Shown here: positions 29,628 through 29,795 of the stretch, one piece after another
Layout of the letters: the number at the start of each line of letters is the position of its first letter
Position numbering within the stretch: the stretch's first letter is position 1
Origin: Escherichia coli
GTDB taxonomy: Bacteria; Pseudomonadota; Gammaproteobacteria; Enterobacterales; Enterobacteriaceae
NCBI RefSeq assembly: GCF_003334305.1
Contig: NZ_QOWS01000006.1
DNA length: 64,000 bases
Reading direction: 5' to 3' (one strand)
Position numbers and translations under genes: made by a program
The notes under the pieces: generated by a model
The model's database searches: none
What the model was told of the DNA's origin: nothing
What the model saw: the letters and a program-made list of their open reading frames with translations, nothing else

Positions 29628-29694
29628 GTTGACTCCTGAGAGGTCGTTTCCCCTCACCCCGGCCCTCTCCCCAAAGGGGCGAGGGGGAAAACAA

Positions 29695-29774
29695 TGCCGG
29701 ATGCGCTTTGCTTATCCGGCCTACAAAATCGCAGCGTGTAGGCCAGATAAGACGCGTCAGCGTCGCATCAGGCG
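29695..29774. repeat. REP pair in the araD-araA spacer, preceded by a GC-rich imperfect palindrome at 29648-29690
   Basis: GCCGGATGCGCTTTGCTTATCCGGCCTACA and GTAGGCCAGATAAGACGCGTCAGCGTCGCATCAGGCG; upstream CCCTCTCCCCAAAGGGGCGAGGGGG. Confidence 0.8.
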
Positions 29775-29795
29775 TTACATACCTGATGTGGCTAC

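Follow-up and report, generated by a model that had tools for sequence, protein, structure and literature searches.

What fills the spacer between araA and araD in Escherichia coli, why does its length differ between strains, and might its contents influence the operon that carries it? In this study, we addressed these questions in a window of 64,000 nucleotides (the whole stretch of DNA that was analysed), in which the araA-araD intercistronic spacer lies on the minus strand at 29628-29795. The ORF coordinates make it exactly 168 bp long, which bears out the initial annotation of a 168-bp spacer between two genes on the same strand. The flanking genes are annotated as araD and araA in RefSeq E. 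coli genomes that are 100% identical here, and the 568 bp centred on the spacer are 100% identical in E. coli E2865 and O91:H21 FWSEC0008, among others in RefSeq; flank-only and BoxC queries added KO11FL (a W derivative) and HS to the identical set. The other spacer of the operon in the window, between araB and araA, is only 10 bp long. Small ORFs overlapping the araA-araD spacer were taken as mechanical ORFs without support. Our joint reading of the locus, to which we give a probability of roughly 0.8, is that the araBAD transcript carries here a length-polymorphic mosaic of REP/BIME-2 and BoxC sequences, whose hairpins would favour araBA over araD. The composition of the spacer, the family membership of its parts, its polymorphism and its predicted hairpins are direct results of the present analysis.

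Read in mRNA sense, the araA TAA is followed by a Y-REP head remnant, a Z2 REP, a 13-nt linker and an inverted Y REP, and then by a G/C-rich BoxC element, CGA-CCTCTC, an AGGAG Shine-Dalgarno (SD) sequence and the araD ATG. The parts are as follows, in order of coordinate.

28932-29627, minus strand: araD coding sequence (L-ribulose-5-phosphate 4-epimerase), the downstream gene, from the ORF list, with its ATG at 29625-29627.
29633-29637, minus strand: araD Shine-Dalgarno sequence AGGAG, lying 5 nt before the ATG and unchanged in every allele examined.
29638-29643, minus strand: CCTCTC hexamer, present only in BoxC-bearing alleles, from alignment and folds.
29647-29691, minus strand: BoxC/PIT/TMECO element, type B with one mismatch, from identity to TMECO no. 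3 and the consensus regular expression.
29650-29685, minus strand: BoxC core of 36 nt, CCCTCGCCCCTTTGGGGAGAGGGCCGGGGTGAGGGG, from the match to the TMECO consensus regular expression.
29695-29724, plus strand: Y-type REP, TGCCGGATGCGCTTTGCTTATCCGGCCTAC, inverted relative to the Z2 REP, from inverted repeats, motif search and RNA hairpin.
29725-29737, minus strand: tail-to-tail linker of 13 nt between the REPs, ACGCTGCGATTTT in mRNA sense, from allele comparison.
29738-29773, minus strand: Z2-type REP, GCCTGATGCGACGCTGACGCGTCTTATCTGGCCTAC in mRNA sense, from inverted repeats, motif search and consensus.
29781-29793, minus strand: Y-REP head remnant of 13 nt, AGCCACATCAGGT, from comparison of unit junctions with the 199- and 284-bp alleles and from the fold.
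29796-31298, minus strand: araA coding sequence (L-arabinose isomerase), the upstream gene, whose translation of 500 aa ends in YYGFRR and a stop.

Two REP units had been noticed from the letters alone, and two are indeed present, Z2 at 29738-29773 and Y at 29695-29724, in mutually inverted orientation. An inverted-repeat search found three pairs in the spacer, with the REP tails paired over 15 nt at 93% complementarity and the REP heads over 13 nt at 85%. The Y and Z2 consensus sequences follow Gilson and Bachellier, and a REP was taken to be a conserved imperfect palindrome, some 30-40 bp long, that has GCC(G/T)GATGCG as its head and CTTATC(C/A)GGCCTAC as its tail, a form that both GCCTGATGCGACGCTGACGCGTCTTATCTGGCCTAC and TGCCGGATGCGCTTTGCTTATCCGGCCTAC take. 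The units are extragenic, sitting between the araA stop and the araD start, and belong to a dispersed sequence: the 64-kb window has 8 copies of the tail motif where 0.35 would be expected, and a megablast query centred on the spacer found a median of 7 places in each E. coli genome. Together, the Z2 REP and the inverted Y REP make up one 85-bp BIME-2 unit. An IHF site defines BIME-1/RIP, while BIME-2 is bound by DNA gyrase. The IHF consensus WATCARNNNNTTR found no match in the spacer on either strand, as would fit BIME-2 rather than BIME-1/RIP. The alternation of oppositely oriented Y and Z2 units, their tandem amplification to two, three or four units at the same site in other strains, and the lack of an IHF consensus match fit the BIME-2 class, as judged from sequence. 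TRF found no tandem repeat in the spacer of the window, as expected of a lone BIME unit. An Rfam search of 29400-30000 returned nothing at the gathering score, with only chance matches and sub-threshold hits to naRNA4 (RF02564, a REP-derived family built from REP325), the best spacer scores being 28.9 and 23.4 bits against a gathering score of 59.5. A different REP pair in the window, at 22661-22740, scores 75.8 bits and passes the naRNA4 threshold. The 13-nt head remnant AGCCACATCAGGT, which begins 2 nt past the araA stop, marks a partial extra BIME unit, and in the fold it can pair with the Z2 head instead, giving an alternative hairpin of 8 bp.

The GC-rich imperfect palindrome of the initial annotation is real, with arms at 29647-29660 and 29676-29689 (14 nt, 86% complementary), but it is more than a palindrome. 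It has the three-block structure CCCTCGCCC / GGGAGAGGG / GGGTGAGGG, flanked by a TTTTCC lead-in and a GAAA tail, and its core is letter for letter that of K-12 TMECO no. 3 (PMC4666352, Table 1), a comparison that was also made with the K-12 sequence itself. That copy is of type B with one mismatch and lies at 282101-282136 in K-12, and TMECO covers what older work called BoxC and the PIT element (Holder et al., 2015, PMC4666352). A TMECO was taken as an intergenic sequence of multiple dispersed copies with the consensus CCCTCNCCC-N3-6-GGGNGAGGG-N3-GGGNGAGGG; the regular expression matches 29650-29685 on the minus strand, where a CCG second loop identifies type B, and the TTTTCC lead-in is common to other type-B copies. 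The expected number of occurrences of the BoxC 20-mer in the window is 0.00, and similar sequences are dispersed through E. coli genomes, at a median of 16 places in each and 34 at most. The TMECO paper catalogues 63 loci, and its supplements name neither araA nor araD nor polB. Like the copy in the window, K-12 TMECO no. 3 (yagA-yagE) is strictly intergenic and shares the TTTTCC lead-in as well as the identical 36-nt core, and the window copy is present or absent according to strain; unlike no. 3, it stands inside an operon, adjoins a REP and lies 9 nt upstream of a Shine-Dalgarno sequence.

In the initial annotation the spacer appeared roughly 100 bp shorter than that of K-12, and the alignment confirms this. 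The MG1655 spacer, between the end of araD at 66550 and the start of araA at 66835, measures 284 bp (66551-66834), so that the spacer in the window is 116 bp shorter (168 vs 284 bp). TRF gives the K-12 spacer a period of 85 with 3.1 copies and a 96% match, that is, about three units, and BoxC is absent from the K-12 araA-araD locus. By alignment, the difference from K-12 resolves into -170 bp (two 85-bp BIME units) and +54 bp (BoxC). The initial annotation had put the shorter spacer down to strain-specific REP copy number, and this stands as far as the units go, with one in the window, about three in K-12 and one to four elsewhere. It leaves out the 54 bp that BoxC adds; since K-12 lacks BoxC here, the length difference is not plain REP loss.

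To place the allele of the window, the spacer was extracted from ten genomes besides MG1655 and aligned. The araA-proximal and araD-proximal ends are constant in these genomes, and the middle consists of one, two or three tandem 85-bp copies of Z2 plus Y. FDAARGOS_1264 has a 114-bp spacer; two O157:H7 strains, Ec-042-T20 and GN03590 have 199 bp; MG1655, KMS2005, T7 Express, ATCC 25922 and UID2309220026 have 284 bp. A 369-bp spacer of four units is found in the GTDB representative of E. coli, and the alleles of 114, 199, 284 and 369 bp are thus whole-unit steps of 85 bp (1, 2, 3 and 4 units). The count of REP units across strains proposed alongside the initial annotation accordingly gave 1, 2, 3 or 4 BIME units, and the K-12 alignment proposed with it gave unequal spacer lengths (284 vs 168 bp). 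In the window, the CGA of the one-unit allele is replaced by 57 nt with BoxC among them, which adds 54 bp net. Strain BS-04 carries the 168-bp allele shortened to 153 bp by a 15-bp deletion inside the C-block of BoxC.

The frequency of these alleles was estimated in two ways. A BoxC junction query (araD start, BoxC and Y REP, counted at a coverage of at least 80%) was present in 1566 of 5426 complete E. coli genomes (29%). Spacer length was further read from the span of joined flanks with two synthetic flank-only queries, each giving 59 informative genomes spaced evenly down the ranking and together 115 unique genomes, which are distributed as follows.

284 bp: 43 of 115 genomes (37%).
199 bp: 29 of 115 genomes (25%).
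168 bp: 29 of 115 genomes (25%).
114 bp: 13 of 115 genomes (11%).
153 bp: 1 of 115 genomes (1%).

BoxC together with more than one BIME unit, for which 253 or 338 bp would be expected, was seen in none of the 115 sampled genomes. The 284-bp allele is found in K-12, B, Nissle and ATCC 25922, the 168-bp allele in HS and W, and the 199-bp allele in O157:H7, ST131 and SMS-3-5. Since unit-number alleles are scattered among lineages in this way, the pattern suggests that unit number has repeatedly expanded and contracted, most plausibly by unequal recombination or slippage between 85-bp units. The BoxC junctions are identical even where the flanks are only 97-98% identical to the window (e.g. KGu016 and 88COLEC), and the uninterrupted junction GGCACGAAGGAG is common to E. 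albertii, which has the 114-bp form without BoxC, and to all BoxC-less E. coli alleles. Because the junctions are identical in divergent backgrounds and uninterrupted in E. albertii and the BoxC-less alleles, the comparison points to BoxC having inserted once, into a one-unit allele of E. coli, and having spread later by descent or recombination.

One alternative is that the repeats act as DNA. BIME-2 is reportedly a DNA gyrase binding and cleavage site, as described by Espeli and Boccard in 1997. The spacer might then relieve supercoiling as a gyrase site in an operon that is highly induced, with BoxC acting as a transient triplex or cruciform that perturbs replication and promotes local rearrangement. 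The type B one-mismatch TMECO sequence, identical to that in the window, forms an intrastrand purine-motif DNA triplex in vitro according to CD and NMR, and sequence variability is raised around TMECO loci (PMC4666352); the araA-araD spacer is itself hypervariable, and the 15-bp deletion in BS-04 hits the C-block of BoxC. However, DMS probing did not support a stable TMECO triplex in vivo, and in earlier work PIT elements were without effect in vivo (PMC4666352), while deletion of REP325 left nucleoid compaction and REP-REP contacts unchanged, according to a 2026 study of that element. BIME copy number also varies in BoxC-less alleles, therefore BoxC is not needed for the instability. Taken together, we consider an action at the DNA level unlikely.

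At the RNA level, the spacer is predicted to fold strongly. The whole spacer RNA has z = -3.6, the Z2 REP forms a hairpin of -17.1 kcal/mol (z = -5.3), the Y REP one of -14.3 kcal/mol (z = -3.5), and both REPs folded together reach -40.9 kcal/mol (z = -5.0). The BoxC RNA hairpin has a predicted energy of -25 to -28 kcal/mol and z = -1.0 to -1.5 against dinucleotide shuffles. It does not qualify as a statistically unusual fold, because any ordering of its G/C-run composition folds well. Stable predicted hairpins sit at the boundary between the araA and araD cistrons.

Hairpins at this place could also act on translation. A REP within 15 nt of a stop codon is said, following Liang, Rudd and Deutscher in 2015, to stall ribosomes. 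By such a route, a hairpin near the araA stop would stall terminating ribosomes and lower AraA, or BoxC would occlude the ribosome-binding site of araD. The weaker alternative hairpin, in which the Y-head remnant pairs with the Z2 head, starts about 7 nt past the araA stop in the fold, and the CCTCTC hexamer next to the SD, which can pair with the last G-block of BoxC in the folds, arrived with the BoxC insertion; both would suit this explanation. The canonical Z2 REP, on the other hand, starts 22 nt past the stop, beyond the 15-nt rule. The araD SD has a predicted unpaired probability of 0.33-0.47 by partition function in the six sequences folded (of 114, 168, 199 and 284 bp), the spacing of SD and ATG is invariant, and occlusion of the SD by BoxC was rejected given that its predicted accessibility is the same across the six. 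Control of translation by the spacer is in our view improbable.

That araD has its own promoter in the spacer, or that an araBA transcript ends there at an intrinsic terminator, is suggested by nothing but the spacer's unusual length. Consensus scans of both strands of 29400-30000 detected neither a sigma-70-like promoter nor an intrinsic terminator, defined as a GC-rich hairpin followed by a T-run. Earlier tests found PIT/BoxC elements to be without promoter or terminator activity (PMC4666352). We regard a promoter or terminator at this site as very improbable indeed.

Other Enterobacteriaceae were compared by an AraD-based scan of one genome per species, which returned 80 loci, with araA upstream of araD in 79 of them. 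The araA-araD spacers of other species are mostly 44-184 bp long. The fold was assessed in the 75 other species whose araA stop is clean and whose spacer measures 30 bp or more: every one of them forms a hairpin domain of at least 9 bp, and in 95% the fold has z < -2 against shuffles. The origin of the hairpin varies. Several Enterobacter species, Leclercia, Phytobacter and C. braakii have short spacers that amount to about one species-specific REP-like hairpin; Citrobacter, Salmonella, Kosakonia and Superficieibacter carry single or paired REPs; one or two BoxC-like elements take their place in Pseudocitrobacter, Kluyvera, K. oxytoca, K. indica and some Enterobacter. In Citrobacter sp. MGH106, the spacer is only 11 bp long and has no hairpin. 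A structured araA-araD spacer appears from this survey to be the rule in the family, yet dispensable, and the pattern would fit both selection for a hairpin and a permissive landing site for palindromic repeats.

The second of these possibilities deserves serious consideration. The repeats may be neutral, selfish or simply tolerated passengers, and the spacer a permissive site for landing and expansion with no measurable effect on ara. In E. coli, four to five length alleles coexist at 11-37% each with no favoured state, a partly deleted BoxC allele of 153 bp exists, unrelated repeat families fill the spacer in different genera, and at least one species makes do with 11 bp. TMECO loci have also been reported to be generally unstable, without an assigned function (PMC4666352), and the 2026 REP325 study describes REP effects as variable and context-dependent. 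Against this, stable hairpins recur in every one of the 75 species whose spacers reach 30 bp, while the neighbouring araB-araA spacer measures only 10 bp in the window, a contrast that suggests retention rather than random occupancy; the 2026 study likewise describes REP-containing tandem gene pairs as biased toward upstream expression genome-wide. On balance, we hold the passenger explanation to be a real possibility, though one with odds somewhat short of even.

The reading that we prefer remains a REP/BIME-2 and BoxC mosaic whose hairpins would act on the araBAD mRNA. The REP and BoxC hairpins would be transcribed within this mRNA and would block 3'-5' exonucleases, so that the araB-araA segment would be protected once an endonuclease has cut; partial Rho-dependent attenuation ahead of araD may be a second consequence. 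Both the exonuclease block and the attenuation would favour araBA over araD, and the number of units together with BoxC would set the strength of the effect. This effect on mRNA and expression is inferred by analogy with malE-malF and REP325 (yjdM-yjdN). The initial annotation had named upstream mRNA stabilisation and polarity as possible roles, and these are established for REP arrays elsewhere.

In the malE-malF model, the classic 3' protective structure as summarised in PMC5927463, endonucleolytic cleavage is followed by a block of PNPase and RNase II at the hairpin, and the upstream gene is stabilised. In both sugar-utilisation operons a REP pair separates two cistrons; malE-malF is nevertheless another operon, and the ara spacer also has BoxC and a unit number that varies between strains. 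REP325 is the nearest precedent, being a BIME-2 array of Z2 and Y units inside yjdMN which, in the 2026 study, stabilises the upstream mRNA and attenuates the downstream gene, partly via Rho. When it was deleted, the downstream gene rose 8-10-fold and the upstream mRNA fell 3- to 160-fold, and across the genome the expression ratio of REP-containing tandem gene pairs was biased upstream. REP effects were nevertheless context-dependent there, and mRNAs ending in a REP did not have uniformly longer half-lives. The window shares with REP325 the Z2 and Y types, their alternating orientation and their position between two co-transcribed genes, and its REPs partially match the Rfam model built on REP325. 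It differs in dosage: REP325 has 12 palindromic units, compared with two plus a remnant in the window and six in the K-12 araA-araD spacer.

L-ribulose-5-phosphate, the substrate of AraD, is toxic, therefore strong attenuation of araD would be costly and a modest effect at most is to be expected. Furthermore, alleles of one to four units coexist at high frequency and the spacer of Citrobacter sp. MGH106 is only 11 bp long, therefore any effect would be dispensable and could be neutral. A bolder proposal is that the araA-araD spacer is selected throughout the Enterobacteriaceae for a strong hairpin of any origin, the E. coli alleles being a heritable, recombination-driven dial on the AraBA:AraD ratio that would affect L-ribulose-5-phosphate toxicity and fitness on arabinose. 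We put it forward tentatively, as a rather doubtful extension of the main reading. The repeats that would supply the hairpin under this proposal are REPs in Escherichia, Citrobacter and Salmonella, and BoxC pairs in Pseudocitrobacter, Kluyvera and some Klebsiella and Enterobacter.

None of the components is new. All elements of the spacer belong to known, long-described families, and the feature is of an ordinary, already-known kind. REPs between araA and araD have been known since araBAD was first sequenced, and work of the 1990s reported that BIME copy number is polymorphic among natural isolates. Bachellier et al., writing in Genetics in 1997, are said to have reported BIME polymorphism in natural E. 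coli isolates, with intergenic BIME-2 arrays varying in unit number. At araA-araD, too, BIME-2 unit number varies between strains. Full-text literature searches for the araA-araD spacer or for REPs within it returned nothing relevant.

Among complete E. coli genomes, about 29% have the 168-bp allele, reference strains such as HS and W (KO11FL) among them, and primers, recombineering arms and araBAD constructs based on K-12 mismatch the spacer in many strains. The spacers of 114, 168, 199, 284 and 369 bp form a natural allelic series in a well-understood inducible operon with a toxic intermediate. Such a series would be useful for following the effects of REP unit number and BoxC on intra-operon mRNA decay, attenuation and enzyme stoichiometry, and it bears on the question of REP dosage raised in the 2026 REP325 study. 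For E. coli itself, by analogy with the systems discussed above, variation of these repeats might slightly tune the balance of the ara operon enzymes.

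The araA-araD spacer of the GTDB representative E. coli SCPM-O-B-8794 (L013) is 369 bp long and contains four 85-bp BIME units; that of Escherichia sp. MOD1-EC7003 (L014) measures 284 bp and follows an araA stop codon of TGA, and E. albertii (L030) carries the one-unit form of 114 bp. A 153-bp allele was identified in E. coli BS-04 (L095, NZ_CP172819.1 64399-64551), which corresponds to the 168-bp form of the window minus 15 bp; this deletion leaves little of the C-rich block in BoxC. Partial deletions of TMECO, as BoxC is also called, are known from Holder et al. (2015; PMC4666352), and the BS-04 deletion is one case of these.

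The gap between araA and araD is only 11 bp in Citrobacter sp. MGH106 (L032), and no hairpin was found in this spacer. In Trabulsiella odontotermitis 01 (L077) the 3' end of araA is apparently truncated or fused near araD, and a clean araA stop was not found in the extracted locus. When the joined spacer flanks were searched as flank-only queries against 5426 complete E. coli genomes, 27 genomes gave no match at all; in SYNB1934, an engineered Nissle derivative, the queries matched the araD half only (H100 and H230, NZ_CP080246.1 ~4198178-4198455), which means that its araA side is either altered or absent.

Further REP elements and Rfam RNAs were located elsewhere in the window, the latter all above the gathering score:
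22661-22740, minus strand: REP pair (BIME) in a convergent intergenic gap
38472-38571, minus strand: TPP riboswitch, 66.1 bits
40328-40554, plus strand: SgrS sRNA, 228.8 bits
46534-46683, minus strand: leucine operon leader, 145.8 bits

The three RNA matches are consistent with the K-12-like neighbourhood that we would expect here (sgrS, leuL, thiBPQ). The REP pair lies between convergent ORFs of 286 aa (21787-22647, plus strand) and 238 aa (22764-23480, minus strand), which we take to be djlA and rluA by K-12 gene order. Its score with the Rfam model naRNA4 (RF02564) is 75.8 bits and exceeds the gathering threshold (59.5), thus the model detects ordinary Z2/Y REP pairs and REP325 is not its sole target. 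REP tail motifs at 3636-3675, 14818-14831 and 35120-35161, two of these sites being inverted pairs and the third a lone copy, are additional BIME/REP sites.

In loci of Pseudocitrobacter, Kluyvera, Klebsiella oxytoca/indica and Enterobacter spp., the araA-araD spacer carries BoxC/TMECO-like elements:
L016, L023, L029, L063, L066, L071, L073, L088, L090, L091: BoxC-like spacers

These elements often form an inverted pair around a spacer of ~25-30 nt, and REP was absent from all of the araA-araD spacers listed, so in these Pseudocitrobacter, Kluyvera, Klebsiella and Enterobacter loci the homologous site is taken up by a different repeat family.
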